Shown: positions 1 through 43,946 of the stretch, one piece after another
Layout of the letters: every line of letters starts with the position of its first letter
Position numbering within the stretch: position 1 is the stretch's first letter
Sequence record: NC_048186.1
DNA from: Escherichia phage vB_EcoM_KWBSE43-6
Length of the DNA: 64,000 nucleotides
Reading direction: 5' to 3' (one strand)
Made by a program: the position numbers and the translations under genes
The notes under the pieces: generated by a model
Told to the model about the DNA's origin: nothing
The model's input: only the letters and a program-made list of their open reading frames with translations
Databases searched by the model: none

Positions 1-71
1 GTGAACATGGGATTGAATCTGATCCCGGTAATGCGGAGATTAATACTGATGGCACCCGGTTTCTTGATGGC

Positions 72-998
72 GTGACTATAACCGTCTCTGATATCCGTGA
101 CCGCTGGCTTTCCGTTGAAGGTCGCAATTCTTCTGCGCTGGCTGCTATTGGCGAGACCTTCTGGGTTCTGTCAGGCCGCAATGACATCCGTTTCCTTTCC
201 CGAGTACTCCCCCGCGCGGCCAACTTCTCTGACGATGGTGTAACCTGGCGCGGCGCGTATGGTACACGCCTGTACAATCACGGGCAGCTGGATAGCGTTA
301 TCAGCCGTCTGCGCAAGAATCCAAATACCCGCCAGGCTTATCTGACAATCTACGACCCGGCGCTGGACTCTGATGAAGGTTTGGCCGCTCATAATGAAAC
401 AGGCGAAGCCAAGACCAAGGACATGATTTGTAATTTGGCCCTTTTGTTCTCTATTACAAACGGCTGTCTGAACATGACTGTCATCAACCGTAGCCAGGAT
501 GTTCTTTGGGGAATGTCTTCGATTAACTTCATTGAATTCTCTATTCTTCAAGAAGTGATCGCTAATGTTTTGGGCGTGAACGTCGGCCAGTACAAGTTGT
601 TCTCCAACAATCTTCATTATTACAACAATGAAGTAAGCCAAAAACAGCTGAGTAAGATCACGGCGGATACCGTCGTGGTGGAAGAAGGAATGTTCAAAGA
701 CAAGATTATTTTCAATAATGAAATTGTTGAAGAGCAGAACGGAATCCTGTATATGTTCCGTGACGTGTTGGAAGCGTGTGAAAGTGGATTATCCTGGTCT
801 TCTGTAGTGGGGATGTTGGAACGCTATGGCGCGGACAGAGGGTTGTTGATGCAAATGGCGTATTGTTTGTGGTGCCGTTTGAACGGTGTTCTTATCAATC
901 ATATGTATATTGCTGATGATGGGTTACTGAATGCTCTCCGCCATTCTCCTGTTGATCGCAAATATATGAATCCTCGTTCTTTGGGTGGTGACAAATGA
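72..998 (+). CDS. Pyrimidine (dCMP/dUMP) hydroxymethylase, thymidylate synthase superfamily (T4 gp42-like)
   Basis: Motifs QAYLTIYDP, catalytic-Cys region MICNLALLF and NRSQDVLWG match the ThyA/dCMP-HMase active-site pattern; GTG start overlaps upstream stop (GTGA); about 60 aa C-terminal extension versus T4 gp42. Confidence 0.7.
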   Translation: MTITVSDIRDRWLSVEGRNSSALAAIGETFWVLSGRNDIRFLSRVLPRAANFSDDGVTWRGAYGTRLYNHGQLDSVISRLRKNPNTRQAYLTIYDPALDSDEGLAAHNETGEAKTKDMICNLALLFSITNGCLNMTVINRSQDVLWGMSSINFIEFSILQEVIANVLGVNVGQYKLFSNNLHYYNNEVSQKQLSKITADTVVVEEGMFKDKIIFNNEIVEEQNGILYMFRDVLEACESGLSWSSVVGMLERYGADRGLLMQMAYCLWCRLNGVLINHMYIADDGLLNALRHSPVDRKYMNPRSLGGDK

Positions 999-1564
999 TG
1001 TATCCTAATCTGGAATTCTTCACGGGGCGCAAGCGCTCCGGTAAAGACTTCTGCCTTGAATCTCTGATCAGTTTCTATGAAATTCAGGGTTACAAAGAAA
1101 TCCGTCGTCTTTCATTCTCAGACGAACTGCGCCGGGTGGCCAATTATATCTACCCATGGTTGCCAGTGGACGTAGACGACGCTATCAAGGACGTTCCGTT
1201 CGTTCACCCAGATAACCATCAGGGGTTAACCCCAAGGCAGATCTGGCTCCATCTCGGGAGCGCCTCTGGGCTGCGTTATGTTCAGCCAGACCTATTCCTG
1301 GCGTTTTTTAAACGTTATCAACTTCCTCTCGTTGAGGCTAATCCTCATATCCATTATATCGTCAGTGATTTGCGTACTCCCCAGGAATATGAATGGGCGC
1401 TGAGCACTAAATGTCCTATCACGCGCATTTCAAAGGCAGACCGTGCCGGTATCATAGAAGACGATATAGAGGCGTTCATTGATGAGATGAAGGTCAATTA
1501 TGAATTTGTCAATCCGTTCCAGGGGTGGGCACCATTCGTCAAATTCTATGAGGAAAGGAAATGA
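995..1564 (+). CDS. Deoxynucleoside monophosphate kinase (T4 gp1-like)
   Basis: N-terminal P-loop FFTGRKRSGKDF resembles the T4 gp1 SGVKRSGKD motif; ATGA overlap with upstream gene. Confidence 0.6.
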   Translation: MMYPNLEFFTGRKRSGKDFCLESLISFYEIQGYKEIRRLSFSDELRRVANYIYPWLPVDVDDAIKDVPFVHPDNHQGLTPRQIWLHLGSASGLRYVQPDLFLAFFKRYQLPLVEANPHIHYIVSDLRTPQEYEWALSTKCPITRISKADRAGIIEDDIEAFIDEMKVNYEFVNPFQGWAPFVKFYEERK

Positions 1565-2112
1565 TAACAGCAGATCATATTAAAAGACTGCTCCAACTCC
1601 AAGAGGCCACTAATGTGGCCTACTTTGGGGAAGAGTGGGAAAAGTATTGGACTCACGTTGCCGTAACGAACTCAATTTATCGTGAATGGGCAGAATTCCT
1701 TGATGAAACCACCAAGGATTGGAAGATTTATGGGAATGGTATCCATTTCAATAGAACGGATGCCGTCTATGAATTGGTTGATGTGGTCCATTTTATGCTG
1801 TCTTCCATATTGTCCGGGTATGGTTCTGCGTTCCCGATCGAAATGCAATTTGATCTTTTCTTCAAAGAAGGTCAGGTAATAGATAAATCTGCTAATCTGG
1901 TACATGTCACCGAACGGTTTACAACGTTTATGGGACAACCCGATATCATCCGGTTTGTACGGTTCTTGGTATGCGCCTGTGGTTATCTGGGACTGGACGC
2001 CGAGACATACATGCTGGCACACAAACGCAAAAATGATCGTAATCGGCTGCGCGCTGCAGGCGGCTCTGACTACGACAAATCCAAAGAAATCCCTCTGACC
2101 CTGGAGTTCTAA
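1561..2112 (+). CDS. All-alpha NTP pyrophosphohydrolase-like protein (MazG/dimeric dUTPase-like)
   Basis: Helical composition with E/D-rich motifs (EWAEFLDETTKDW, YELVDVVHFML); position in nucleotide-metabolism operon. Confidence 0.3.
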   Translation: MITADHIKRLLQLQEATNVAYFGEEWEKYWTHVAVTNSIYREWAEFLDETTKDWKIYGNGIHFNRTDAVYELVDVVHFMLSSILSGYGSAFPIEMQFDLFFKEGQVIDKSANLVHVTERFTTFMGQPDIIRFVRFLVCACGYLGLDAETYMLAHKRKNDRNRLRAAGGSDYDKSKEIPLTLEF

Positions 2113-2630
2113 TGTTTACGATTAACATCTCCATTTCGGCCGATAACCTTGAGTCATCGGTTGGCAATTTCATTGAGCACATGAAGCCCTTGGGACATGT
2201 GATACTCAATTGCACGTTAGACGTTGAAGGCGGGGTTGCGGAGATGTTATTCACGACACCCTCTCCAACAGACGCATTCGTCTTGATTGAGCGCTGGGCA
2301 TCGGAGGACATTCCTGTTCCAGCGCCGTTACAGGATATCTATTTCAGCGAGACGATCTACTCACTCCATAGTATGCCCAAGGACGTAAGCCAGGCAGATA
2401 TTGTTCGTCTGATTAATCATAACATGAACTTTGGGTGTATCGTTCGGCGTGATAACTACCGTTTACGCAATCATTTCCTGTATGATAACCAGAACAAAGT
2501 GGATGAAGATCCATTATTATCCATCAAAACCATGCAGGAAGCGATTAATATTTTGTCTAAGAAGGTTCTGGGTGCAGAATTATTAACCACAATTAACAAA
2601 CAAGAGGAAGTAAAATGGCCAGTTCATTAA
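2112..2630 (+). CDS. Hypothetical protein
   Basis: 172-aa ORF, coupled to flanking genes. Confidence 0.45.
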   Translation: MFTINISISADNLESSVGNFIEHMKPLGHVILNCTLDVEGGVAEMLFTTPSPTDAFVLIERWASEDIPVPAPLQDIYFSETIYSLHSMPKDVSQADIVRLINHNMNFGCIVRRDNYRLRNHFLYDNQNKVDEDPLLSIKTMQEAINILSKKVLGAELLTTINKQEEVKWPVH

Positions 2631-3700
2631 TGGATCGCATGTTGAAAGTTGCTAAGAAACATGACGATCAGGCTTCGGTATTGTCTCAGTCAGACGCGCT
2701 CGACCCGAAAATTATCTGCTCGACTGGTATTCCCCTTATTGATATCGCCTGGTCTGGGCGTGTTGATGGCGGTCTGATCTCTGGCATCAAAATGATGGTC
2801 GGTGATTCTCGTACATTCAAAACGATGTTCGGCCTGGTGGACGTCAAAGCGTACATGGATAAATTCCCCGACGCGATCTGTGTATTCGCCGATTCCGAAA
2901 AAGGTGCCAACGCCGATTATTGGACATCCATGGGTATTGACATGGATCGTGTTCTGTATGTCCCGATCGATAACGTTGAACAAACCAAGATCCGTCTGCT
3001 ACAGATTCTTCAGGAAGTGAAGAAAGGCGATAAAGTAATCGTGTTCATCGACTCTATCAGCCAGTTACCTTCCACCAAAGAGGTCGAAGACGCCATCGCT
3101 GGCAAAGATACCCAGGACATGACCCGCGCCCGCGCCCTGAACAGCTTCTGGCGCGTCATTACACCCGAGATTAACAGCAAAGAGCTGGTGTTGGTCTGGA
3201 TCAACTCGTATTATGATGAAATCGGGAACCAATATGCTGAGCCTAACATCAAAGGCGGTAAGCAGGGATTCCTATCATCTAACCTGATTTGGTTCATCAC
3301 CCGTTCACAGGTAAAAGAAGACAAAGACCTGCTGGGGTGGAACTTCAACATCGGCATCATGAAAGGTCGCCATGTTAAAGAGAAAGCCAAACTCCCTGTC
3401 ACGGTTCTGTATGATGGTGGTATTGACCGTTGGAGCGGCATGCTGGAAATTTCTCGGGCGCTTGGCTATGTCGATATGCCGACTTCTGGCTGGTATGTCC
3501 GGACAGCCAAAGGTGGATTTGATCCAGAAAAAGAGAAGAAATACCAGAAGCGTCAAATGGATGATGACTTTTGGTATCCGCTTCTGGAAAACCCGGACTT
3601 CGCCGATGACGTTAAAAAGATGTTCGGCGTTTCCAACGGTACGGTAATGCCTGCGAACATGCTGGAGCAGATGGACCATGTTATCAACACCAGTGAATAA
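2615..3700 (+). CDS. uvsX: UvsX recombinase (RecA-like)
   Basis: Strong T4 UvsX-like motifs: VVFIDSISQLPSTKEVEDA, DMTRARALNSFWR, LYDGGIDRWSGMLE, GWYVR. Confidence 0.9.
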   Translation: MASSLMDRMLKVAKKHDDQASVLSQSDALDPKIICSTGIPLIDIAWSGRVDGGLISGIKMMVGDSRTFKTMFGLVDVKAYMDKFPDAICVFADSEKGANADYWTSMGIDMDRVLYVPIDNVEQTKIRLLQILQEVKKGDKVIVFIDSISQLPSTKEVEDAIAGKDTQDMTRARALNSFWRVITPEINSKELVLVWINSYYDEIGNQYAEPNIKGGKQGFLSSNLIWFITRSQVKEDKDLLGWNFNIGIMKGRHVKEKAKLPVTVLYDGGIDRWSGMLEISRALGYVDMPTSGWYVRTAKGGFDPEKEKKYQKRQMDDDFWYPLLENPDFADDVKKMFGVSNGTVMPANMLEQMDHVINTSE

Positions 3701-4007
3701 CAATGGAGGGGGAGTCACCTCCCCCGTTAATTACGAACTCATCGACCCCGGTGAAGGCCAAATATCCATCGTCCATATTTTGGAGGGCCAATTCCGTGGT
3801 GTCAAATTCCGTATTGGGAAAGTATCCTGGGAATGGTCTGATGACGCACCCCGGCTTATTTTTACCACGGATATTTTGAAGAAACCTTGGCGTATTTTCT
3901 TTAAAGATTTGAAAAATAACGACTTGTTCACTGAAGTGTCAGGCCGTATCTTATTAGACTTAATGCAGAAGAACGCTCAGGAATACAACAAAATTTTGGT
4001 GGGGTAG
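3678..4007 (+). CDS. Hypothetical protein
   Basis: 109-aa ORF between uvsX and helicase. Confidence 0.4.
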   Translation: MLSTPVNNNGGGVTSPVNYELIDPGEGQISIVHILEGQFRGVKFRIGKVSWEWSDDAPRLIFTTDILKKPWRIFFKDLKNNDLFTEVSGRILLDLMQKNAQEYNKILVG

Positions 4008-5441
4008 TTGCCAATGTTACTCGAATCTGTCGTGCTTTCCCAATTGATTTACAATGAAGAATACCAAAGAAAAATATTGCCTTACCTGAAAGCCGATTAT
4101 TTCGAAAATGAAGGTGAGAAGATTATATTCGGATTAATTGACGATTATTCGTCAGAATATAATGCTCGCCCTTCGGTTGATGCTCTGTCTATTATGCTGG
4201 AGAAGACTCCGCTCAACGAGCATGTGTTTGAACAATCAATCGCCGCTCTTTCTAATATCAATGACAATACATTCAATCAGGAATGGTTGGTAAAAGAAAC
4301 TGAGCAATGGGCGCGCAATAAGGCTGTGCACAACGCGATAAAAACAGCTGTTAACATCTATGGTGACAACAAGCGGCAGGAGGAGATGAATAATATCCCC
4401 ACCATCCTGCAAGAAGCGTTGTCTATCAGTTTTGATTCATATCTTGGTCATATCTATTGGGAAATGGCTGCAGAGCAATATGACCATATGAATTCAGCTG
4501 AGGCCAAAATCCCATTCGCTGTTGAAATATTCAACAAGGCTACGCGCGGCGGTGTAGGCAAAAAGACCCTGAACATTGTTACGGGTGCCATCAACGCAGG
4601 TAAGACCACAACCCTGATAGACCTGGCGGCGGGTTATTCAGAGCAGGGGCTGAATGTTTTCGTCTTTACCCTGGAAGTTGCTGAGAACATTTGGCGTCAC
4701 CGTCTTGACGCCCGTATTATGCGACGTGATTTTGAAGTCGTTGAGAAGATGACCCGTGAAGAGTACATCGGGACAATCCAAAAATTAAGGACAAGGGACA
4801 ACGGCTCTCTGAAAGGCGATATCGTCATCAAGGAATACCCATCTGGGGCAGGGCATACTGGATTGTATCGTCGAGATATTCTGGAATATATCTCGTCAAC
4901 AGGCATCTCTCCTGACGTTATCATTATCGACTATCTGGGTGAATCGGCGTCTTCGCGTCTTCCGGCTCATCTTATGAACAACACCAACGTGTACTATACA
5001 TCTGTTGCTCGTGAATTCCGTGCTCTTGGGTTCGAATTTGATTGCCCGGTGTGGACTGGTATGCAGTTCAATCGTGAGAAGCAATCAGCCACAGACGGGG
5101 ATATCAGTGACCTGGCAGATGCTATCGGTATCCCGAAGGTCGCCGACTTCATCATGGCATTCTATGCGCCGGACGAATTGGCTGCAGTCAAGAAGGCCCG
5201 CGCCAGTATCCTCAAAAACCGTTATGCCAACAAACAGAAATTGAAATCGTTCTTGTTTGGTATGGATCAGGATAAGCAGATTTTGTTTGATCTTGACTGG
5301 AATGAGGTTAAGCGAGATCTCACAGAAGAAGAAGCCAAATATGTTGAGAATGTTCATATTAAACATGATATGAACAAAACAGGGAACGTTGTGACCGACG
5401 CGAAGAAAGCGGAAACGGTCAATAACTGGAACTTTGGCTGA
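4008..5441 (+). CDS. 41: Replicative DNA helicase, DnaB family (T4 gp41-like)
   Basis: Walker A GAINAGKTT; N-terminus resembles T4 gp41; 477 aa. Confidence 0.9.
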   Translation: MPMLLESVVLSQLIYNEEYQRKILPYLKADYFENEGEKIIFGLIDDYSSEYNARPSVDALSIMLEKTPLNEHVFEQSIAALSNINDNTFNQEWLVKETEQWARNKAVHNAIKTAVNIYGDNKRQEEMNNIPTILQEALSISFDSYLGHIYWEMAAEQYDHMNSAEAKIPFAVEIFNKATRGGVGKKTLNIVTGAINAGKTTTLIDLAAGYSEQGLNVFVFTLEVAENIWRHRLDARIMRRDFEVVEKMTREEYIGTIQKLRTRDNGSLKGDIVIKEYPSGAGHTGLYRRDILEYISSTGISPDVIIIDYLGESASSRLPAHLMNNTNVYYTSVAREFRALGFEFDCPVWTGMQFNREKQSATDGDISDLADAIGIPKVADFIMAFYAPDELAAVKKARASILKNRYANKQKLKSFLFGMDQDKQILFDLDWNEVKRDLTEEEAKYVENVHIKHDMNKTGNVVTDAKKAETVNNWNFG

Positions 5442-5503
5442 TTTCAATAAACGGATCATGAGGTATAATCTTCATGATCTGAATATAAACCCAGGAGCAC
5501 ATC

Positions 5504-5839
5504 ATGTTGCACAATAATTTCATGGCGGATCTGCTACGCGCCGTTGAGCAGGTGTGCCACACCAAGAAGGATACGATCAATCTAGACTTCGCTCAGACTA
5601 TCGAATTCTTTAAAGCACGCCATGCTTGGAAAGACCACAATGTGAAAGTAATGGCGCAAGAAGGGGAATTGGTTGAACTCGATTTGCCATCATTCCCTTT
5701 ACCGGTACGGACCGAAACTCAGGAACAATACGAAATTGAAGGCGTTCGCATTATTCCTAAGTTTGGTTATCATAGTATCGTTTACTTCTTCCTGAGCCGG
5801 ATTGGGAGAAATATCATCCCGACCGGAATGCGTATCTAA
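5504..5839 (+). CDS. Hypothetical protein
   Basis: 111-aa ORF. Confidence 0.4.
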   Translation: MLHNNFMADLLRAVEQVCHTKKDTINLDFAQTIEFFKARHAWKDHNVKVMAQEGELVELDLPSFPLPVRTETQEQYEIEGVRIIPKFGYHSIVYFFLSRIGRNIIPTGMRI

Positions 5840-5852
5840 TAGAGGGCTTAAC

Positions 5853-6167
5853 ATGTCTGTAGAACAAATTGGTTTTTATGAAATCCCGAACGACCCGGCG
5901 CTGCGCAAGAAACTGTTTGACACCATCGAAAACTGCCGCGCCGCCCAAGTCCGTATCAAATCAGAACAGACGTACATCACTGACGCACTGTCTGAAATCG
6001 GTAAAGCAACGGGCATCAAAGCAGCTGATCTGCGTAAAGTCGTGTCAGACCGCGCCGCTGGTACTTACACCAAGACAATCGAAACCAGCGCCAAATACCA
6101 GGATCTCTACGAATCCCTGTTCCCGAACGCCGCGCCGGATCGTGATCCGAATACTTCCGGCGAATGA
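5853..6167 (+). CDS. Hypothetical protein
   Basis: Start re-picked at ATG 5853 with AGAGGG RBS; followed by terminator. Confidence 0.45.
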   Translation: MSVEQIGFYEIPNDPALRKKLFDTIENCRAAQVRIKSEQTYITDALSEIGKATGIKAADLRKVVSDRAAGTYTKTIETSAKYQDLYESLFPNAAPDRDPNTSGE

Positions 6168-6178
6168 CAGACCCCAAA

Positions 6179-6205
6179 GGCCCAACATTCGTTGGGCTTT
6201 CTTAC
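6179..6205 (+). terminator. Rho-independent terminator
   Basis: GCCCAAC-ATTC-GTTGGGC hairpin followed by TTTCTT. Confidence 0.6.
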
Positions 6206-6285
6206 TTTCAAAACCTTTACTTCAATAAACAACCGCGCTATATTTCATTTTATTGAATTGTTGTTTCTAAATCATGAGGTGAAAG

Positions 6286-7479
6286 ATGGACGCCAAAATC
6301 TACCAGATCCCGCTGGACAATGTCGTCATTGCGCAGGAACGCCTGCAAAAATTAGAGCGCACGGCAAATCGACTGGGGCTGGTATTCCCGACGGTGACCA
6401 TCAGTGAACCATACAGAACCCAACACAAAGATTCTACGTCTGGTGAAATTTTCTATCGTTGGTGGCGGGACATTTCTCTTGAAGGTGAAGGCATTGACCG
6501 CCCGGTTTCATACGGCGGCTGGTCTATCATCGGACAGTTCAATCATCAATATCCAAAGGTCATTCTCAACAAACTGACTGACGACATCGTCCCGCATTTC
6601 ATTCAACGATTCGAGGCAGAGAACGTATCGTGGTGTGAGCATTGCAATAAATCAGTTCGCCGCAATAACACATATGTGGTTCGTAATGAAACCAGCGGAG
6701 CGCAAATGCTCGTCGGTAGCAGCTGCATGCACCATTACGTGCCTCACCAGAAGTCCCTGGATGCCGTAATGGGTTATTACCTGTCCATTCACGAGCTGTT
6801 TAATAACCAGGACGAGGACGGCATCTATGGCGGCGGTACTCCGACGACTGTCGACACCCGGAATTATTTGCGTTTGGTATTCCAGATTTTGTTGACAGGG
6901 GTAGACATCAAATCAGATGTGTATTCAATCGTCATGTCATGCTTCAATGAAGGACAGCCGCCGAAAGACAGATCATCTTTGGCTTGGGATATCTACCACA
7001 AAGCGAAAGAATTTTATTTCGATGCCCTGAGCGAAATGGATCATATGATGGGATTTATTGCATCACTTCCACAGAATAACGATTTCAATGTCAGATTGAC
7101 TCGTATGTGTGAGGCCGGGTATCACCTTATCAAGGATTCCACGACCGTCCGCTGGGGTGCCGTCAAATATTATGAATTTTTACACAAGGGCAACGCACGG
7201 CTGAACAAAATTCAAACCAATTGGGTCGGGGAAATCGGGGAGATGATTGAGAAGACCGTCACCTGCGTTGACCGCAAGTTCCTCTACAGCGGGGATTGGG
7301 GTGATTCCTATCTGTATATCTTCAAAACCGAAGATGGTAGTACGATTACATGGAAGACATCCTATATTGATGCGGATCTGGAAGGACAGATGGTTATCCG
7401 GGGCCGGGTGAAAGAACTGACTGAGTATGAAGATGTCAAACAGACTCAGATTACCAGAGCAAAGTTGAGGACGTTATGA
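6286..7479 (+). CDS. Hypothetical protein with Cys/His cluster
   Basis: 397-aa ORF; WCEHCNK...SSCMHHY possible metal-binding site; function not recognised. Confidence 0.5.
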   Translation: MDAKIYQIPLDNVVIAQERLQKLERTANRLGLVFPTVTISEPYRTQHKDSTSGEIFYRWWRDISLEGEGIDRPVSYGGWSIIGQFNHQYPKVILNKLTDDIVPHFIQRFEAENVSWCEHCNKSVRRNNTYVVRNETSGAQMLVGSSCMHHYVPHQKSLDAVMGYYLSIHELFNNQDEDGIYGGGTPTTVDTRNYLRLVFQILLTGVDIKSDVYSIVMSCFNEGQPPKDRSSLAWDIYHKAKEFYFDALSEMDHMMGFIASLPQNNDFNVRLTRMCEAGYHLIKDSTTVRWGAVKYYEFLHKGNARLNKIQTNWVGEIGEMIEKTVTCVDRKFLYSGDWGDSYLYIFKTEDGSTITWKTSYIDADLEGQMVIRGRVKELTEYEDVKQTQITRAKLRTL

Positions 7480-7616
7480 CATTATTAGAAATGAATGCTG
7501 CGGTGTTAACCAAATTCATCGCAGGTGAACTCAAGATCGGACTCGCCATATTTGGTATCACTACCGTTGCCTTGGCCATATGGGTTCTGATCTATCTGAT
7601 AAAGAGGAAAGGTTGA
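7476..7616 (+). CDS. Small single-TM hydrophobic peptide (not in ORF track)
   Basis: ATGA overlap with upstream stop, GAGG RBS 6 nt upstream; reads MTLLEMNAAVLTKFIAGELKIGLAIFGITTVALAIWVLIYLIKRKG; TGATG coupling to next ORF. Confidence 0.35.
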   Translation: MTLLEMNAAVLTKFIAGELKIGLAIFGITTVALAIWVLIYLIKRKG

Positions 7617-7828
7617 TGGAATGTTCATGTGGAGGGCAGGGGACGAGTTCTTACACCCGTTACCCCACTGTGAAGGAAGCCGAAGCTGCTGGATTCCGCG
7701 TAGAAAAGGCTCCCTGTGTAATCGCCTTGAAAGACTGTCCGGTCTGTAAGAGGCACTCTCAGGACGTCTGGTATGAGCCAGGCGCTCAACCAAAGACAGT
7801 CAATTTGCTGTCCATGATGGGGAAATAA
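7616..7828 (+). CDS. Small Cys-rich protein (putative zinc ribbon)
   Basis: MECSCGG...CPVCKRH; start re-picked at ATG 7616 with AGAGGAAAGG RBS. Confidence 0.4.
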   Translation: MECSCGGQGTSSYTRYPTVKEAEAAGFRVEKAPCVIALKDCPVCKRHSQDVWYEPGAQPKTVNLLSMMGK

Positions 7829-7829
7829 A

Positions 7830-8018
7830 ATGAAAGACGTTACTGATGACCAATTGAAGGAGATGTGGCGGCAAACTCAAATTATCGCTCACAAGAAAAT
7901 GAAAACTATCCGAGCGCTCGAAAATGAACTCGGGGAACTTACCAAGGACTCTACTAATTTAGAGGTCGAATTAATCAAGCGCGGTTATGTTGTCAAGCGC
8001 CGTTTTTGGGAATACTGA
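7830..8018 (+). CDS. Hypothetical protein
   Basis: 62-aa ORF. Confidence 0.35.
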   Translation: MKDVTDDQLKEMWRQTQIIAHKKMKTIRALENELGELTKDSTNLEVELIKRGYVVKRRFWEY

Positions 8019-8019
8019 T

Positions 8020-8361
8020 ATGGCAACTCTCGTAGAAACATTATTTCCTGGCTGCATCATTGGCCGTGGGTGTTCTGAGGCCAGCGGCTTGGAAGCAGAC
8101 GTAGAACCGAAGAACTGTATCATCATTGATAAGTTCCATGACAATCATTATCCTCTGAATCATCGCCGTGATCATTACCTGGTTTCGGTCAATGGTTGCC
8201 TTGTATCCTTGCGTATTTGCCAGGCAATGGATAGTTCCGGGTATGGTGCATTTGCCTATATCCATGATGTGTCTAACGGCGTGTTTGGTCAGGAAACCCT
8301 GATCGAAAAATTCAAAGGATGGAAAGAATCGTTCACTTCTTGTGAACCACCGAAAGAATAA
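8020..8361 (+). CDS. Hypothetical protein
   Basis: Start re-picked at ATG 8020 directly after upstream stop. Confidence 0.4.
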   Translation: MATLVETLFPGCIIGRGCSEASGLEADVEPKNCIIIDKFHDNHYPLNHRRDHYLVSVNGCLVSLRICQAMDSSGYGAFAYIHDVSNGVFGQETLIEKFKGWKESFTSCEPPKE

Positions 8362-8416
8362 TCTATTTCAGTCTTTGGGGTTATAATTGGATTACAAATA
8401 ACCCCGGAGACTCAAG

Positions 8417-9838
8417 ATGATTCCTCTGTTAGAAGCAATTCACACTCTTCGTGAGACCAAAGGCACCAATGCCAAGAAAGAAGTCCTGACACAAATTTTG
8501 AAAGAAAATCCGGACATGGTCGATTTTCTTCAGTATGTGTATGACCCACTTCTTTCTTATTATCGTACAAAGTTTTTACCGAATGCGTTCCCTCGTATGC
8601 TGTCGCGCGGCGTCGTCGGTAGCTGGGATCAGGTGTACGATGTTCTCGACCAGATGAGCGAACGTACCCTCAGCGGGCAGAAAGCCGATCATGAATTATC
8701 GAAAGCGGCGACCAATATTCACCCGGATTACCACGAACTCATCCAGATGATCCTGGACAGGGACATTAAAGCCGGTATTGCTGAAAAGGGAATCAATGCG
8801 GCATTCAACGCAGCGGGCGGGACCGGGCGGCTGATCAACGTACTTCCCTATCATCGTTATGACAACATGACGATTGACCTGCTGAAGAAGATGGACTTCC
8901 GGCGCGGGGTTTACAGTCAGCTGAAATCAGACGGCATGTTTGCCAACATCATCTGCCGACACGGAAAAGAACCCGAAATTCGTTCCCGCTCCGGTTCTCT
9001 TATTGCTGGCGGCTCAGTGGACAACCTATCCCTGGTGTTTAAGGATATCATCTATGATGCTGGAGTTGGCGAGAGCGTGTTCCACGGGGAACTCTTGGTA
9101 GTAGACCTCAAACAAAATACCATCCTGCCTCGTGCTGTCGGCAACGGTAAACTCAACAGCGTGATCCAGACGGGGGAACCTTTACCGGAACAATTCCAGG
9201 TTATCTACCGGGTATGGGATATCGTTCCGTATGAAAAATGGTTCAATGCCGAGCGTGTTGATATCCCATATGAAGCCCGTTACAACATCATCTCCCAAAT
9301 GTTTGACGATGATGGCCTGGTGCAAGTCCAGGAAACCCGTGTTGTTCATTCGTTTGCAGAAGCGGTCGAGCATTTCAAAGACGCGCTATCCCGTAAAGAA
9401 GAAGGCACGATCTGTAAGGCAGCAGATATGCCTTGGGAAGATGGCACAAGTAGCCAAGGTCTCAAACTCAAAATGGAAATTGAGTGTGATCTGGAGATTA
9501 TCGGATTTAATCCCGCTGACGCCAAAGGTAAGCATTCCAAGACGTTTGGGTCGCTACTTTGTAAGACCTCCGATAGTTTACTCATCGTTGGCGTCTCGGG
9601 GATCTCAGATGACCTCAGGAAGTATATGTGGGAACACCAAGACGAGTTCCTGGGTAAGATCGCCGCCGTCCTCTCCAATGGCGTACAGGACAAAACGGAT
9701 GATTCTTTGAAATCATTGTTCCTACCCCGGCTGGTTGAAGTTCGTATTGACAAGAAAGTTGCTAATACGCTCGATGAAGTCTATGAGATTCAAAAAGCGT
9801 ATGTTGAAAACATTCTGGTTCTATTAGAGGCCGCATAA
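8417..9838 (+). CDS. 30: ATP-dependent DNA ligase (T4 gp30-like)
   Basis: Adenylation motif I LKSDGMF (KxDG); 473 aa; N-terminal helical region. Confidence 0.8.
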   Translation: MIPLLEAIHTLRETKGTNAKKEVLTQILKENPDMVDFLQYVYDPLLSYYRTKFLPNAFPRMLSRGVVGSWDQVYDVLDQMSERTLSGQKADHELSKAATNIHPDYHELIQMILDRDIKAGIAEKGINAAFNAAGGTGRLINVLPYHRYDNMTIDLLKKMDFRRGVYSQLKSDGMFANIICRHGKEPEIRSRSGSLIAGGSVDNLSLVFKDIIYDAGVGESVFHGELLVVDLKQNTILPRAVGNGKLNSVIQTGEPLPEQFQVIYRVWDIVPYEKWFNAERVDIPYEARYNIISQMFDDDGLVQVQETRVVHSFAEAVEHFKDALSRKEEGTICKAADMPWEDGTSSQGLKLKMEIECDLEIIGFNPADAKGKHSKTFGSLLCKTSDSLLIVGVSGISDDLRKYMWEHQDEFLGKIAAVLSNGVQDKTDDSLKSLFLPRLVEVRIDKKVANTLDEVYEIQKAYVENILVLLEAA

Positions 9839-17355: not shown

Positions 17356-17868
17356 TTATTTGTCTGGGTTTACGCAAAGGGGAGTTGTAGTCAGCTCGCC
17401 TTTATCATCAAAACTGTATTTCAGAACCGCATATTGGTCAACCATGCGATAGACTTCAATACCGGCATTCATCATTTCCACGATGCCCGTCGTGATCCTG
17501 TACGGTTCACAGTAGATCACTTTATCGATCTTGCCGCTGGCAATAATACGTTTGGTGCACTCAGGGCAAGGACTGTGAGTGACGAACATAACCAGACCAC
17601 ACCAATCTGCCGCATGTTGAGGTAAACGGTTCAGAGCATTTTCTTCGGCGTGAATAACACCGTCAGATACCAGCTGGCCGTCTACTTCTATTTCGCACAC
17701 ATTAGGAGCGCCGGGCGCAGTGCCATTCCAGCCAATAGCCAACGGCTGATCAACCCGAGGATCTACGATAACACAACCAACCTGGAGACGGCGGGCATAA
17801 CTGGTTTTGCCATATGCCTGGGCTGCTCTCATATGGGCAAACATCATGCGTGGCTTAATCATGGACAT
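17356..17868 (-). CDS. cd: dCMP deaminase (cytidine/deoxycytidylate deaminase family)
   Basis: Zinc-binding motifs HAEENA and PCPECTK. Confidence 0.9.
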   Translation of the reverse strand: MSMIKPRMMFAHMRAAQAYGKTSYARRLQVGCVIVDPRVDQPLAIGWNGTAPGAPNVCEIEVDGQLVSDGVIHAEENALNRLPQHAADWCGLVMFVTHSPCPECTKRIIASGKIDKVIYCEPYRITTGIVEMMNAGIEVYRMVDQYAVLKYSFDDKGELTTTPLCVNPDK

Positions 17869-27356: not shown

Positions 27357-27983
27357 TTATAGACCAAATTTGCCCCGCCACTTTTCGACTTTGTGCTCAA
27401 ATGCGTGCTCAACTTTTATTCTAATCGATGACGGTTCTGCACAATGATAATACGTTCTTCCTTCATCAGTCCCATATTGAGGGGCGCAACCGTATGACAA
27501 TGCCAATTGAGCTGTGTATCTGATTAAAGTGCTCACCAGGAAGTTTAAATTATCGGTAGATCTTTGTGGCTGGTTTAGCAATCTGGTGATACGCCCTTTC
27601 ATATGATGGATCATAGCTAAATTCTTTTCTGGCCCTGTGGTGGTATCACAGAAAAGGTGGTCTTCAAGGGAATATTGGCGGAAATCAGAATATCCTTGCG
27701 ACAACGCCATTTGGGTTATAATTGAATCAATAATTTCATCTTTCGTCATATTACCATGGATTTGTGCATCTTTGTAATCGCAGACATACAAAAGATCAAC
27801 TGCTGAGATAATCACGTCAGCTATTTCTCCATTGAGTGGCTCTGAAGCTGCGATGCCGTGGTAAACATCGGAAAGTTCACATACTTCTTCCACCAGTTTA
27901 CAGAAGACGAAAAATGGAGAACGATCTGGATTGACCACAGTACATTCATATGACGTATTGACAATATTACGCAGAAATTTCAT
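27357..27983 (-). CDS. MazG-like nucleotide pyrophosphohydrolase
   Basis: LVEEVCELSD ... GEIADVIISAVDLLYV matches the MazG/HisE E-x2-E ... E-x2-D pattern. Confidence 0.45.
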   Translation of the reverse strand: MKFLRNIVNTSYECTVVNPDRSPFFVFCKLVEEVCELSDVYHGIAASEPLNGEIADVIISAVDLLYVCDYKDAQIHGNMTKDEIIDSIITQMALSQGYSDFRQYSLEDHLFCDTTTGPEKNLAMIHHMKGRITRLLNQPQRSTDNLNFLVSTLIRYTAQLALSYGCAPQYGTDEGRTYYHCAEPSSIRIKVEHAFEHKVEKWRGKFGL

Positions 27984-40163: not shown

Positions 40164-41381
40164 TTATTTCTTCATCAATGACATCAGATTAACACTCTTC
40201 CCAACAGGGGCGGTCTCCTGTTTGCGTTCAATACGCTCTTCAAGTTCCCAACGTGTTCCCTTCTGTAGATGCCAGATATGTAGGGGAACGCCCGTCTCAA
40301 AGAACACAGGCATCTTCCACTTCTGGACGCCTGGGACGTGCCCTGCGGGAGCCTTCTCACATAACAGGGTATCTGGTAGCCAAAGTGAACGCGCCTCCCA
40401 GAGTGCCGCGCAGGAGTACTCCGGCCAAATGCGTTCCATGTAGTCGATTTCGTCCCAGGTACGCTCCGCATCCCACCCGATATAACGAGTGTTCTTCAGA
40501 CGGAAGAATTTCTTCAACCAACACGCGCCAGAGGTCTCAAAGTTCAGACGGTTGATGAACGTCAGGTGACCGAATTCTTCAACGCATTCATGGAATGCCT
40601 TTTCCAAATCGGCTTCCAGGATGTCACACTCTTCATCGGTGATAGGACAGCCGTCGATCTTTTTCTTCCCGTGTTTGGTCACCCAATCATCACGGTTAGA
40701 AAGGAACGCCGCGCCGTTGCGGTTCGATTCGCTACCTTCACGGTCACGCAGCATGAAGCCAGGGACATCGATTTCCCACATGTTACCGAACACCATGTTC
40801 AGGGCTTCCAGGAAGTTCCAGGCGCTCAGACGGCCGAAGTATTTCCAGGACATTGCCGTGTCCCACAACTCAGTAAACTGGTCTTCTTTCATGGTGCATT
40901 CCAGCATCCAACGAAAAGAATCCATCTGAGTTTTACCGCCCAGCCAATCCACATAGGACTGAACACATGGGATCATCTTGGACTTGCGGTAGCGGCAATC
41001 AGTATCGAAGCGCATGCGTTCAAAGTTCAGATTATACCAGTCCGAGAAGCGCTGCATTTCTTCTTTGGTCTGCGGAGGAACCGGGAACTCAGAGTAGATT
41101 GTCCACGGGCCGATCGCATTATAGCAGCAACCCCAAAGAAACGCCATCCAGATCTTGCGCTCGATCTTTTCCAGATTGGTGAGGCCTTCTGTGACTTCAA
41201 TAGCATAATCCATCAGACGCATCTGCTGGTTGTGCTCTTCAGTATAGGACAGCGCTTCTACCCACGCCTTGAGCAGATACATCCGGTTCTCAGGCTTGCG
41301 GTAGTCAACCTTCAGATCAATCGGGTACTTCCATTGCTCAGGGGCTTTATACCCCTGCGGCATTTTAGATAAATGTGCCAT
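40164..41381 (-). CDS. Large conserved hypothetical protein (candidate DNA-base modification transferase)
   Basis: 405 aa, Trp/Cys-rich, sits beside P-loop kinase and HAD nucleotidase genes; function inferred from context only. Confidence 0.4.
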   Translation of the reverse strand: MAHLSKMPQGYKAPEQWKYPIDLKVDYRKPENRMYLLKAWVEALSYTEEHNQQMRLMDYAIEVTEGLTNLEKIERKIWMAFLWGCCYNAIGPWTIYSEFPVPPQTKEEMQRFSDWYNLNFERMRFDTDCRYRKSKMIPCVQSYVDWLGGKTQMDSFRWMLECTMKEDQFTELWDTAMSWKYFGRLSAWNFLEALNMVFGNMWEIDVPGFMLRDREGSESNRNGAAFLSNRDDWVTKHGKKKIDGCPITDEECDILEADLEKAFHECVEEFGHLTFINRLNFETSGACWLKKFFRLKNTRYIGWDAERTWDEIDYMERIWPEYSCAALWEARSLWLPDTLLCEKAPAGHVPGVQKWKMPVFFETGVPLHIWHLQKGTRWELEERIERKQETAPVGKSVNLMSLMKK

Positions 41382-41766: not shown

Positions 41767-41970
41767 TCATTTCCTTAAAAATAATTTATAGACAACAGGT
41801 ATCAAGAACGATAAGAAGCCGAACCAGTAAACCACATTCATGGTTTTCTTTTCTGCTTCTGATAGATCAATGAAACCATAATGATATACTATCATGGTTA
41901 ATAATGAGGCTAAACAAGTGATCGCCCCGACCAATAAAATTGCATCCAACCACTTGTTGTTCATCTTCAT
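41767..41970 (-). CDS. Small membrane protein
   Basis: 67 aa, two hydrophobic helices. Confidence 0.35.
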   Translation of the reverse strand: MKMNNKWLDAILLVGAITCLASLLTMIVYHYGFIDLSEAEKKTMNVVYWFGFLSFLIPVVYKLFLRK

Positions 41971-42851
41971 TTCCTCAACATCATAGCCAGCACGTTAGAA
42001 CTTTTGGACAGCTGTTTCTTTTCATCAGCAGTCTTCTTGACAGTCGGGCGGCGGGTAGCCTTTTCCGGTACGCGATGCGCCAGCGGGTCTGAACCACCAA
42101 CTTCGCGTGTCATTGGATGGTCTTCGCAATACTTATAGAATTCTTTGAAGACGAACCCAGCGTCACGGACTTCATTGATGATCATGTGATGAATGGCATT
42201 GCCAATGACCCACAGCGGTGCGTCGAATGGCAATTGGGCAACTTCGCTGCCAACGCCGTTCTTTTTGTAGAGGACGTCCTGACCGCTGTATGAATCTACA
42301 ACGACATCCCAGCCCGCCGCCGCCATTTCAGATTTAGACTTTTCAAATTCTTTCTGATAAGACTCATTCCGAGTCCAGCCCGAATCCCCGGCTTCTTTAC
42401 CAGAACGCCCACGGATACGAGCATCATACTGATAACGATCCGGATACGTGAAGTACAACAGCGCCAGTTGCTCAATAGGATAATTGGCAAACAGCCATTC
42501 TGGACGCCATTTATCAGACAGCATCAACGGTTCACCCTCACAGACGAGCGTATATCCCGCGCTGAGATGTTCTTTGACCAGTTCGCGGGCGATATCACCA
42601 GAACCTGTCGCGGCATGGATAGCGTCCATCGAGGTCCACGAGGCAAGACCGGATTTGTTTGACGCAGTATACTGGCCGACAAACATTAATTTCAGTTCAT
42701 CAAAGGCCAGGCCAAACAGGCGCGTTTTATCGCCGATGGTATAAGTGACCTCGCGCGGCTCGAGGCGAGTACGCAGCCATTCTATGAACTGTACCACACG
42801 AGTGCCCTTGCCCGTGCCGCTTGTGCCTTTGATTACAATCAGTTTTGACAT
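41967..42851 (-). CDS. P-loop NTPase/kinase-like protein
   Basis: N-terminal GTSGTGKGT Walker-A-like motif; 294 aa. Confidence 0.45.
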   Translation of the reverse strand: MSKLIVIKGTSGTGKGTRVVQFIEWLRTRLEPREVTYTIGDKTRLFGLAFDELKLMFVGQYTASNKSGLASWTSMDAIHAATGSGDIARELVKEHLSAGYTLVCEGEPLMLSDKWRPEWLFANYPIEQLALLYFTYPDRYQYDARIRGRSGKEAGDSGWTRNESYQKEFEKSKSEMAAAGWDVVVDSYSGQDVLYKKNGVGSEVAQLPFDAPLWVIGNAIHHMIINEVRDAGFVFKEFYKYCEDHPMTREVGGSDPLAHRVPEKATRRPTVKKTADEKKQLSKSSNVLAMMLRK

Positions 42852-43222
42852 TAGTTGTCATCCTCAATACGCCATGATACACCGCCAAGCCAAGGCGACC
42901 AGAATACAGCGACCTTCTGGCGACCATATTCTTCGAATTTCACTTTATAACGGTCATCGAAGTCATAGAAAATTTCATCTTCTTCAGAACGTAATAAAGA
43001 ATCTACTGCTAATGAATGAAATTTCTGAGCTGCTCCAACGGGAGTAGGAGTTTCCATCCCCCTGATATAATTGTTTACAGCCGAAACGATCGGATGTACG
43101 ATGCTTTTCGCGGAAACTACAGGCTGAGTTGTAACTTTCAATTCGTTAGACACTTCAGACTCCTTGACGGACAAATTGGTAATGTGCAACCAGGCGGTCA
43201 ACGACTTCTGTAAAATTTTCAC
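42851..43222 (-). CDS. Hypothetical protein
   Basis: 123-aa ORF. Confidence 0.35.
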   Translation of the reverse strand: MKILQKSLTAWLHITNLSVKESEVSNELKVTTQPVVSAKSIVHPIVSAVNNYIRGMETPTPVGAAQKFHSLAVDSLLRSEEDEIFYDFDDRYKVKFEEYGRQKVAVFWSPWLGGVSWRIEDDN

Positions 43223-43946
43223 GCAGATAGTCGAAGTGGTTGCGGCCTTCTACTGGTTTAACATATATCATATTTTCTGAATCCGAAAGATCCAGTTTTT
43301 CATAATTCCCCTGAGGAACGAAGATGCTGAAAACATTGTTCCAGATGCACGGGTCGACATATTTCGGATTGTCGTCAATCAAAACATCGCCAGCAACCAT
43401 GTGCTTTTCATCCGTGCTGATGAAGCCATTGAAGATGTTCGGGAACTTGCCATACACGAACTGACGTTTGCTGCGTTCGTGCTCGGGTTCACATTTGGTG
43501 ACAGCAACAAATTCCACCATTTCAAACTTCATGAGCAGCGCATCATGCAAGTTGTTCAAGAACTCTACCGCACCGGGCAACGGCTGCATACGGGAGTACA
43601 GATCAGGTTGGCGCCAAAAGTCCATCGGGTCGCGTCCGTTTGACATATAATGGGTCTTACCGCCGATACTGACATATGAATGTGACCATGCCGGATGAGC
43701 ACGTTCACGCATCAGGATTGCCAAATCACCCGCATGGTTCATATAACATTGCTTGGTGATCGGCTGGAATTTAGCAGGGCCAACAATCCCGTCCGGGAGA
43801 CTTGCTTGGGCTTCCAGGTTTCCGTCATTAAACCATTTGACCCAAGGCGATAGACTATCGACGATTGTCAGATCAACGTCCACCAAAACCCGGTACAGGC
43901 CTCCGACCTTTGAGTTCATATCGTATAGGCAAGTCAGGTTGTTCAT
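43155..43946 (-). CDS. HAD-superfamily 5'(3')-deoxyribonucleotidase-like protein
   Basis: Motif I VDVDLTIVDS (DxDxT) and C-terminal VLIDDNPKY. Confidence 0.4.
   Translation of the reverse strand: MNNLTCLYDMNSKVGGLYRVLVDVDLTIVDSLSPWVKWFNDGNLEAQASLPDGIVGPAKFQPITKQCYMNHAGDLAILMRERAHPAWSHSYVSIGGKTHYMSNGRDPMDFWRQPDLYSRMQPLPGAVEFLNNLHDALLMKFEMVEFVAVTKCEPEHERSKRQFVYGKFPNIFNGFISTDEKHMVAGDVLIDDNPKYVDPCIWNNVFSIFVPQGNYEKLDLSDSENMIYVKPVEGRNHFDYLRENFTEVVDRLVAHYQFVRQGV

Follow-up and report, generated by a model that had tools for sequence, protein, structure and literature searches.

The 5' end of the 64,000-nucleotide stretch of phage DNA that we analysed (hereafter the window) very probably encodes the nucleotide-pool, or pre-replicative, arm of the thymidine-hypermodification pathway of the Ackermannviridae; we put this at about 90%. 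Its three genes are predicted to specify a dUMP hydroxymethylase, a kinase for the product and a dUTPase. The operon is the hydroxymethyl-dUTP supply module already described for ViI-like (Ackermannviridae) phages, real but ordinary: the CBA120 operon (Kutter 2011, PMC3184105) and the ViI pathway (Lee 2018, PMC5889632; Lee 2021, PMC8989533) have been published, and the present analysis adds no new biology. What we contribute to the case for this pathway consists of gene identities, key residues, a predicted fold, synteny and orthology to ViI proteins; the activities of the ViI enzymes that work at the DNA level, and the occurrence of 5-(2-aminoethoxy)methyl-dU (5-NeOmdU) in ViI and a Taipeivirus, are taken from the literature.

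A translationally coupled gene string

The window is 98% identical in DNA to Klebsiella phage phi1_175010, a Taipeivirus of the Ackermannviridae, and the region of interest is 94% identical to that of Trex_ER12; because 265 phage records match it at the DNA level, the region is not a chance feature. It contains three open reading frames in the same (plus-strand) direction, with stops at 998, 1564 and 2112, and, as the initial annotation had reported, start and stop codons overlap between successive genes, here in the sequence ATGA (995-998 and 1561-1564). All three are genuine, conserved genes coupled in translation, and the string extends beyond them. A gene for an ACT-like domain protein (2112-2630, plus strand; PF24021, 3e-81) starts on the last nucleotide of the stop of the dUTPase-family gene, a 1-nt overlap (TAATG), and the start of uvsX (2615-3700) overlaps it in turn by 16 nucleotides. 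Upstream, relatives carry a 5-hmdU DNA kinase gene that runs into the start of the ThyA-like gene through a TGATG overlap; in the 98%-identical relative its product, which matches PF18748 at 1.4e-105, is the ortholog of ViI gp67, a characterised 5-hmdU DNA kinase, and in our sequence it would lie just off the window. Gene order (gp67 [5-HMUDK]-thyA-dnk-dUTPase-gp62-uvsX) and overlaps are the same in ViI (Vi01_060c/059c/058c), to whose proteins those of the window are 76% (thyA), 87% (dnk), 66% (dUTPase) and 41% (gp62, in the same position as the ACT-like protein) identical. A scan of positions 1-8500 for promoters and terminators found such sites no more frequently than in shuffled sequence, so the limits of the operon are drawn solely from overlapping stop and start codons. 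Rfam at gathering thresholds returned seven tRNAs and nothing else.

The first gene (1-998, plus strand) is truncated at its 5' end. Its frame is open from base 3, from where we read the codons, and the GTG at 72, taken as the start by the initial annotation, is an internal codon. In phi1_175010 and phage May the complete gene is 1056 nt long, encodes 351 amino acids and starts 58 nt (19 codons and one base) ahead of the first base of the window. Both the start at 72 and the accompanying estimate that the protein is about 60 residues longer than T4 gp42 arose because the window edge cuts the gene; the difference is actually about 105 residues (351 against 246). Residue numbers below are those of the full-length 351-residue protein, and conservation was counted across 79 homologs.

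A probable hydroxymethylase of the ThyA superfamily

By profile cutoff and by fold the protein is a member of the ThyA/thymidylate synthase superfamily, as had been proposed. It scores 57 bits against PF00303 (cutoff 24.3), in a match that reaches no further than position 222 of the 266 in the profile, and its AlphaFold2 model (mean pLDDT 94) matches thymidylate synthase and MilA structures with a Foldseek probability of 1.00. Its own PHROG family, phrog_3676, is matched at 3e-154 from profile position 45; the next closest is the family of SPO1 gp29, SP10 and M6 (7e-56), followed by that of thymidylate synthase and T4 gp42 (4e-26).

The catalytic cysteine (C163, 429-431) and the N-R-S-Q-D motif (486-500) noticed in the initial annotation are both present. 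C163, R183-S184-D186 (489-494 and 498-500) and H225-Y227 of the H-x-Y motif (615-617 and 621-623) are invariant in all 79 homologs; so are Arg130, Asp160 (420-422) and Asn195 (525-527), and these three are shared, as are Cys163 and Ser184, with SPO1 gp29, a characterised dUMP hydroxymethylase. The core of the latter is 35% identical to that of our protein and has in common with it the aspartate three residues before the cysteine, C-N, N-R-S-x-D, the asparagine and H-x-Y. The aspartate, in the sequence K-D-M-I-C, is found also in SP10, an M6-like phage and T4 gp42, whereas E. coli thymidylate synthase has leucine there. An acidic residue (Asp or Glu) at this position activates the substrate water, and the aspartate is regarded as a hydroxymethylase mark where thymidylate synthases have leucine (PMC6400193).

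Most GenBank records nevertheless call the protein of relatives a thymidylate synthase, which would make dTMP; the PF00303 match and the uracil-recognising asparagine of thymidylate synthase agree with this label. We consider it very unlikely to be right. Relative to the E. coli enzyme, aspartate replaces Leu143, a gap and a phenylalanine stand at the positions of Trp80 and Trp83, and the phage protein has no C-terminal tail to close the active site for hydride transfer, a MilA-like helical domain taking its place (for the roles of these residues and of the tail see PMC6400193). All six NCBIfam thymidylate synthase equivalog models fall far below their cutoffs, at 33-60 bits against 108-405, the best reaching 59.7 bits against 327; identity is about 20% to E. 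coli ThyA, compared with the 35% to SPO1 gp29; and the downstream pathway described below requires 5-hmdU. The initial annotation had considered that specificity residues identical to those of thymidylate synthase would tell against a hydroxymethylase. As a test this is incomplete: a dUMP hydroxymethylase is expected to have the same uracil-specifying asparagine as thymidylate synthase, and it is the Asp-for-Leu substitution and the absent tail that tell the two apart.

That residue also bears on the choice between dUMP and dCMP. Asparagine at the specificity position (Asn177 in E. coli) denotes uracil and aspartate (Asp179 in T4, Asp186 in MilA) cytosine, while serine together with arginine denotes deoxyribose (PMC5175136). 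MAFFT and HMMER place the specificity aspartates of T4 and MilA one column away from Asn195, owing to a one-residue indel. We therefore based the equivalence, over the raw alignment column, on the spacing from the aspartate of R-S-x-D, on a superposition in the literature that equates T4 Arg177 with E. coli Pro175 (PMC6400193) and on the lack of any acidic residue in the specificity loop, G-M-S-S-I-N-F. A dCMP hydroxymethylase like T4 gp42, giving the phage hydroxymethylcytosine, would share with our protein the superfamily, the aspartate three before the cysteine and the want of a thymidylate synthase tail, but we judge it extremely improbable: the specificity asparagine is present in 79 of 79 homologs and the loop is without an acidic residue; T4 gp42 is not in the best 60 of 61 PDB sequence matches (E<=0.01) and belongs to another PHROG; among the gene products of the window are enzymes whose substrate is 5-hmdU in DNA, as well as a dCMP deaminase, which would deplete dCMP; and in CBA120 cytosine is not replaced by hmC (PMC3184105). 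The ThyA-like protein is best read, from its residues, as a dUMP hydroxymethylase. The initial annotation had guessed at dUMP rather than dCMP, and both Asn195 and the 5-hmdU-processing genes of the same window support it.

The Ser/Thr that the dCMP hydroxymethylase signature places two residues before the conserved tyrosine is absent, the sequence being G-A-Y here, A-P-Y in SPO1 and SP10 and S-N-Y in T4. The Ser-x-Tyr part of this signature derives from enzymes that use dCMP, and it is missing as well from SPO1 gp29, a characterised dUMP hydroxymethylase.

The best match of solved structure is MilA, the CMP 5-hydroxymethylase of Streptomyces rimofaciens (PDB 5jnh, 5b6d), in sequence (3.7e-18) as well as in fold (TMq 0.75). 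R130 aligns with Lys133 of MilA and S184 with Ala176, so that Asp, Ala and Lys in MilA stand against Asn, Ser and Arg in the window enzyme; these differences imply that MilA takes a cytosine ribonucleotide and the window enzyme a uracil deoxyribonucleotide. A CMP hydroxymethylase of MilA type was rejected on this residue evidence.

The extra C-terminal region begins at about residue 237 (base about 711), and its helical part (789-995, plus strand; residues about 263-351), which replaces the thymidylate synthase tail, is modelled by AlphaFold2 as helices at 265-280, 285-294, 300-314 and 326-334. MilA too has an extra C-terminal helical domain, situated away from the active site (PMC5175136), and it is included in the fold match: the Foldseek alignment to MilA covers the full-length model with its tail, in 351 columns, whereas thymidylate synthases align over about 240 columns with a TMq of 0.5. 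By analogy, the domain of the phage enzyme should also lie away from the active site. The initial annotation had remarked on the extended C-terminus; it is not peculiar to this phage, at least 103 residues following H-x-Y in 79 of 79 homologs. SPO1 gp29 (383 residues) likewise has a long C-terminal tail, although the two tails have no detectable sequence similarity. It is conceivable, if doubtful, that this fast-evolving helical domain is more than the folding aid suggested for MilA, and would serve as a docking module, keeping the kinase and dUTPase that are translated with it together in an hmdUTP-channelling complex like the dNTP synthetase of T4, the dUTPase also destroying dTTP and so excluding thymine at replication.

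The presumed kinase and the dUTPase-family protein

The second gene (995-1564, plus strand) encodes a T4 gp1-type dNMP kinase, presumed to act on 5-hmdUMP. It matches phrog_139 at 1.1e-43, over the same profile span as T4 gp1 itself (1.8e-65), and its P-loop, G-R-K-R-S-G-K-D at 1025-1048, resembles the G-V-K-R-S-G-K-D of gp1. Direct comparison with T4 gp1 by BLASTP aligned 29 residues, in the P-loop region only, and a PDB sequence search with the kinase recovered neither T4 gp1 nor another kinase at E<=1, so the gp1 relationship, which the initial annotation had also perceived, is carried by the common PHROG and the P-loop.

The third gene (1561-2112, plus strand) was described initially as specifying an all-alpha NTPase-like protein. 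Its product belongs with the all-alpha dimeric dUTPase-family NTP pyrophosphatases, scoring 32.9 bits against PF08761 (cutoff 22.9) and 8e-38 against phrog_173, and it aligns with the Campylobacter jejuni dUTPase 1w2y at E 3.7e-4. In this alignment E42 (1684-1686), E45 (1693-1695), E71 (1771-1773) and D74 (1780-1782) fall opposite C. jejuni E46, E49, E74 and D77, which we take to be metal ligands. Against the NCBIfam dUTPase equivalog, whose cutoff is 300, it scored 26.7 bits. The protein is presumed to be a dUTPase, possibly a dTTPase too; activity on dTTP or dCTP is possible. When the dUTPase, MazG-like, kinase and NT5C-like proteins of the window were compared by BLASTP with SPO1 gp22.1, 23.1, 29.3 and 30.2 and with M6-like neighbours, nothing meaningful was found.

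A proposed route from dUMP to the final base

Taken together with genes further along the window, the operon suggests the following route. A dCMP deaminase and the dimeric dUTPase-type pyrophosphatase would provide dUMP. The catalytic cysteine of the ThyA-like enzyme would attack C6 of dUMP, a methylene group would be transferred from methylene-tetrahydrofolate, and water, rather than hydride, would add to the exocyclic methylene to yield 5-hydroxymethyl-dUMP. The gp1-type kinase would raise this to the diphosphate and host NDP kinase would complete 5-hmdUTP, from which the phage polymerase would put 5-hmdU into DNA. There, 5-hmdU DNA kinases—one whose gene lies, in relatives, immediately before the start of the window, and a second encoded inside it—would phosphorylate the base, an amino acid:DNA transferase would add serine, and a PLP decarboxylase would convert the product to 5-NeOmdU.

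Those of the genes for these further steps that lie in the window are all on the minus strand. The dCMP deaminase gene, at 17356-17868 as the initial annotation had it, is genuine (PF00383, 1.2e-16; phrog_174, 1.6e-56; product 69% identical to that of ViI). The transferase gene (40164-41381) specifies an ortholog of ViI gp247, of aGPT-Pplase clade 2, with 85% full-length identity and a match to PF18724 at 1.8e-58; gp247 puts serine on phosphorylated 5-hmdU in DNA (PMC8989533). At 41967-42851 is the gene for an ortholog of ViI gp243, 5-hmdU DNA kinase 2 (71% identity; PF18747, 3.9e-138; function in PMC8989533), and at 51300-52670 that for an ortholog of ViI gp226, the PLP-dependent decarboxylase which converts O-serinyl-T to 5-NeOmdU (PMC8989533). 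The latter is 88% identical over 396 residues, with a weak match to Pfam PALP, and its translation probably begins some 30 codons into the reading frame as listed. The window thus holds orthologs of gp243, gp247 and gp226, and that of gp67 adjoins it in the relative: the ViI-type hypermodification gene set. An NT5C-like deoxypyrimidine 5'-nucleotidase gene (43155-43946, minus strand; PF06941, 8.7e-9, 35.9 bits, cutoff 24.8; product 70% identical to ViI orf239) is a candidate to encode a dTMPase.

The most likely final base, by analogy with ViI, is 5-NeOmdU rather than hmU or hmC. In the ViI-like family 5-hmU is an intermediate of nucleotides and nascent DNA, part of which is converted to 5-NeOmdU after replication (PMC5889632, PMC8989533, bioRxiv 10.64898/2026.05.19.726188). 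The initial annotation had thought hmU plausible; this stands as far as the dUMP substrate is concerned but not for the final base, given the orthologs of gp243, gp247 and gp226. That hmdUMP is made as proposed and hydroxymethyluracil itself remains in the mature DNA is true of phages of SPO1 type, whose hydroxymethylase is, of those characterised, the closest to that of the window, and it was the first interpretation for CBA120 (PMC3184105). For our phage we find it highly improbable, since 5-hmdU DNA kinase 2, the serine transferase and the PLP decarboxylase of ViI all have intact orthologs in the window. Moreover, ViI virion DNA is devoid of 5-hmdU (PMC8989533), measurements have shown 5-NeOmdU in both ViI and CBA120 (PMC5889632, PMC11721090), and chemical confirmation for a Taipeivirus came in 2026 with phage phiHS2, in which 5-NeOmdU takes the place of about 16% of dT; Trex_ER12, 94% identical to our region, is named among the closest relatives of phiHS2 (bioRxiv 10.64898/2026.05.19.726188).

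The roles we propose for the operon genes are the same as those proposed for ViI and for CBA120 (orf073/orf070; Kutter 2011) (PMC3184105, PMC8989533), where the ViI-type hydroxymethylase, kinase and dUTPase were themselves assigned by inference, without assay. ViI differs in genus and in host (Taipeivirus and Klebsiella here), and no functional difference is evident. In SPO1, where hmU is the final base, the gene neighbourhood is unlike that of the window. T4 gp42, gp1 and gp56 follow the same logic, a hydroxymethylase, a modified-dNMP kinase sharing PHROG 139 with ours and a pyrophosphatase (gp56, a dCTPase/dUTPase) that feeds the monophosphate pool, but in T4 it is cytosine that is modified (Asp179), gp42 is without a C-terminal domain, and the genes are scattered and not translationally coupled.

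The expected base, 5-NeOmdU reached via 5-hmdU, bears on how the DNA would behave towards restriction enzymes and in sequencing, and on its resistance to host nucleases. The practical value of these assignments is in annotation: in public records the hydroxymethylase appears as 'thymidylate synthase' and the decarboxylase as 'threonine dehydratase', and the kinases that act on 5-hmdU in DNA are entered as 'terminase small subunit' and 'guanylate kinase'.

A coupled gene string and its relatives

Three plus-strand open reading frames, ending at 998, 1564 and 2112, encode a ThyA-like protein cut by the window's left edge, a gp1-like dNMP kinase (995-1564) and an all-alpha NTP pyrophosphatase (1561-2112). 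Both junctions are ATGA (995-998 and 1561-1564), which bears out the initial annotation's view of three genes coupled by stop/start overlaps, and Shine-Dalgarno-like purine runs lie immediately 5' of them. The coupled string extends past the three genes noted there, to an ACT-like gene (PF24021; 2112-2630, +) overlapping the pyrophosphatase stop as TAATG, and then to uvsX (2615-3700, +), which shares 16 nt with it. A scan for consensus promoters and terminators gave none above shuffled expectation within the string.

A DNA-level search with window bases 1-4000 matched 265 phage records, headed by Klebsiella phage phi1_175010 (Ackermannviridae, Taipeivirus; 98.2% identity across all 4000 bases), followed by the Klebsiella Taipeiviruses K751, Trex_ER12 and May, then by Salmonella, Escherichia and Dickeya phages of Ackermannviridae. 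These relatives correct the ThyA-like gene's start, initially placed at 72: the frame is open from base 3, the GTG at 72 is merely its first start-type codon, and the PHROG profile alignment begins only at profile position 45. In phi1_175010, whose protein differs from the window's at two residues, and in May, this gene spans 1056 nt (351 aa) and starts 58 nt upstream of window base 1; in phi1_175010 the upstream gene is joined to this start by TGATG. Since the full gene encodes 351 aa in relatives, the excess over T4 gp42 (246 aa) is ~105 aa, rather than the ~60 first estimated.

Substrate specificity of the ThyA-like enzyme

Pfam Thymidylat_synt recognises the window protein (57 bits, cutoff 24.3), but over profile positions 54-222 of 266 only, so that the thymidylate synthase (TS) C-terminal part is absent; none of the six NCBIfam TS equivalog models reaches its cutoff (33-60 bits against 108-405). 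Its own Ackermannviridae family ranks first among PHROGs (3e-154), then phrog_5131 (7e-56), which holds the SP10, SPO1-like and M6-like enzymes, and last phrog_160 (4e-26), where ordinary TS and T4 gp42 belong. In a PDB sequence search the closest solved structure is MilA, a Streptomyces CMP 5-hydroxymethylase (3.7e-18), with TS structures behind it at 3e-8 or weaker; the 60 matches listed do not include T4 gp42.

We aligned the window protein with ViI thyA (Salmonella phage ViI), SPO1 gp29 (the characterised dUMP hydroxymethylase), SP10 gp188, an M6-like enzyme, T4 gp42 and E. coli ThyA (sequence identical to PDB 1aob); residue numbers are those of the full-length 351-aa protein. The catalytic Cys, R-S-x-D and H-x-Y occur in every one of them. 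At the position three residues ahead of the Cys (Cys-3), the window protein and every aligned hydroxymethylase have Asp, where E. coli TS has Leu143; the T4 dCH ternary complex shows this Asp activating the substrate water, and it has been proposed as a hydroxymethylase signature (PMC6400193). Canonical TS was rejected on this Asp, the absent C-terminal TS part and the equivalog scores.

According to the rule drawn from MilA, cytosine is read by Asp (MilA 186, T4 179) and uracil by Asn, while Ser and Arg select deoxyribose, and Ala176 and Lys133 ribose (PMC5175136). The base-specificity residue is Asn in the window protein, ViI, SPO1, SP10, the M6-like enzyme and E. coli TS, and the deoxyribose positions are Ser184 and Arg130. 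One additional residue in the specificity loop of the window protein makes aligners set T4 Asp179 and MilA Asp186 one column off this Asn; the equivalence was fixed by spacing, +8 from the R-S-x-D Asp in T4 and E. coli alike, and by a published superposition in which T4 Arg177 corresponds to E. coli Pro175. With Asn at this position and no acidic residue in the loop (G-M-S-S-I-N-F), a dCMP hydroxymethylase was likewise rejected. Among 79 aligned database homologs, D160, C163, N195, S184 and R130 are all invariant. Where the published 'Ser-x-Tyr' signature calls for Ser, the window protein has Gly; SPO1 gp29 also lacks this Ser. By all sequence features tested the window enzyme is of the SPO1 gp29 type, its catalysis as a dUMP hydroxymethylase being predicted.

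The extended C-terminus, initially singled out as notable, proved family-wide: 103-314 residues follow H-x-Y in 79/79 homologs, whereas E. coli TS has 55 there and T4 gp42 has 28. SPO1 gp29 is 383 aa long, SP10 gp188 382 aa and the M6-like enzyme 351 aa. An AlphaFold2 model of a full-length homolog (P0001, 97% identical to the window protein; input, the 79-sequence alignment; mean pLDDT 94) places four main helices within residues 265-334 and a further, short helix at 344-347. In a Foldseek comparison with the PDB, MilA comes first (TMq 0.75, 351 alignment columns), with TS at TMq ~0.5 over ~240-276 columns, so the extra part, as modelled, is structurally like MilA's. The latter is an additional five-helix domain away from the active site, needed for solubility and otherwise given as of unknown function (PMC5175136). 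Sequence comparison indicates that the domain is evolving faster than the core within Ackermannviridae-like homologs (mean identity 45% vs 81%); no sequence similarity between it and the SPO1-type tails was detectable.

Partner enzymes and a probable hypermodification pathway

The 189-aa kinase has the P-loop G-R-K-R-S-G-K-D (T4 gp1, G-V-K-R-S-G-K-D) and matches phrog_139 (1e-43), as does T4 gp1 (2e-65), both covering one and the same stretch of the profile, although pairwise the two show no detectable similarity outside the P-loop; a PDB sequence search with it found nothing. The 183-aa protein is recognised by Pfam's dimeric dUTPase model (32.9 bits, cutoff 22.9) and matches Campylobacter dUTPase 1w2y, four acidic residues aligning with E46, E49, E74 and D77; it is presumed to be a dUTPase of this family. 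Because CBA120 did not incorporate labelled thymidine, Kutter et al. suggested dTTP as a further substrate of the ortholog in that phage (PMC3184105). Yet most virion T in such phages is plain thymidine (~60% of T positions in ViI, ~84% in Taipeivirus phiHS2), and how 5-hydroxymethyl-dU (5-hmdU) becomes thymidine was stated to be unknown by Lee et al. 2018.

Gene order in ViI is identical (gp67, thyA, dnk, dUTPase, gp62, uvsX; gp numbers of Lee et al. were read from the 'orf000NN' notes of the ViI record), with identities of 76% for thyA, 87% for dnk and 66% for dUTPase. The ACT-like gene that sits, translationally coupled, between those for dUTPase and uvsX keeps its position (gp62) but is only 41% identical, where its neighbours reach 66-87%. 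ViI gp67 is a 5-hmdU DNA kinase by experiment (PMC8989533), and its phi1_175010 ortholog (PF18748, 1.4e-105) lies directly upstream of the window's left edge. The window's minus strand encodes a 5-hmdU DNA kinase 2 (41967-42851; PF18747, 3.9e-138; 71% to ViI gp243), an amino acid:DNA transferase (40164-41381; PF18724, 1.8e-58; 85% to ViI gp247) and a PLP enzyme, the decarboxylase (51300-52670; 88% to ViI gp226), whose ORF as listed probably begins ~30 codons too early, judged against ViI. Work by Lee et al. on ViI established that 5-hmdU in DNA is phosphorylated by the kinases and joined by gp247 to serine via the serine hydroxyl, and that gp226 decarboxylates the product to 5-(2-aminoethoxy)methyl-dU (5-NeOmdU; PMC5889632, PMC8989533). 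A 2026 preprint reports the same gene set in phiHS2, with 5-NeOmdU at ~16% of dT by HPLC-MS, and counts Trex_ER12, to which the window region is 94% identical, among its closest relatives (bioRxiv 10.64898/2026.05.19.726188). The dCMP deaminase initially reported is present in the window. With orthologs of the ViI 5-NeOmdU enzymes encoded there too, the final base would most likely be 5-NeOmdU rather than hmU, initially thought plausible as the modified base.

The three-gene region would constitute the pre-replicative arm of a thymidine-hypermodification pathway, comprising dCMP deaminase, dUTPase/dTTPase, dUMP hydroxymethylase, dNMP kinase, host NDP kinase and phage polymerase, as drawn by Lee et al. 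2021 (PMC8989533); the T4 gp42/gp1/gp56 set follows the same working scheme, the window's acting on uracil instead. By analogy with SPO1-type phages, an NT5C-like deoxypyrimidine 5'-nucleotidase adjoining the DNA kinase 2 gene (43155-43946, -) and a second, MazG-like pyrophosphatase (27357-27983, -) could be candidates for depleting dTMP and dTTP. The feature was real and correctly sensed, its gene start and length, family-wide C-terminal domain and final base needing correction; the module has already been described for this phage family (PMC3184105, PMC5889632, PMC8989533, PMC11721090, phiHS2 preprint).

Record labels and accessory regions

The gp67-type kinase (PF18748, 1.4e-105) is labelled 'terminase small subunit' in Ackermannviridae and SP10 GenBank/RefSeq records (phi1_175010, L001:3164-3943; ViI Vi01_061c, L010:38203-38865; SP10 gp186, L005:1-924), which looks like a propagated PHROG-derived misannotation. 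In relatives, DNA kinase 2 is labelled 'guanylate kinase' and the PLP decarboxylase 'threonine dehydratase'.

Window G+C is uniform (44-49%). Between a 397-aa ORF (6286-7479) and the DNA ligase gene (8417-9838), the window (~7480-8417) is ~1.8 kb shorter than a 98%-identical relative (PQ066595.1 82544-85258), which has eight small hypothetical genes there, marking a variable accessory region. Rfam places seven clustered tRNA genes at 54311-55995 (-), where the relative has annotated tRNAs for Gln, Tyr, Asn, Ser (two) and Met.
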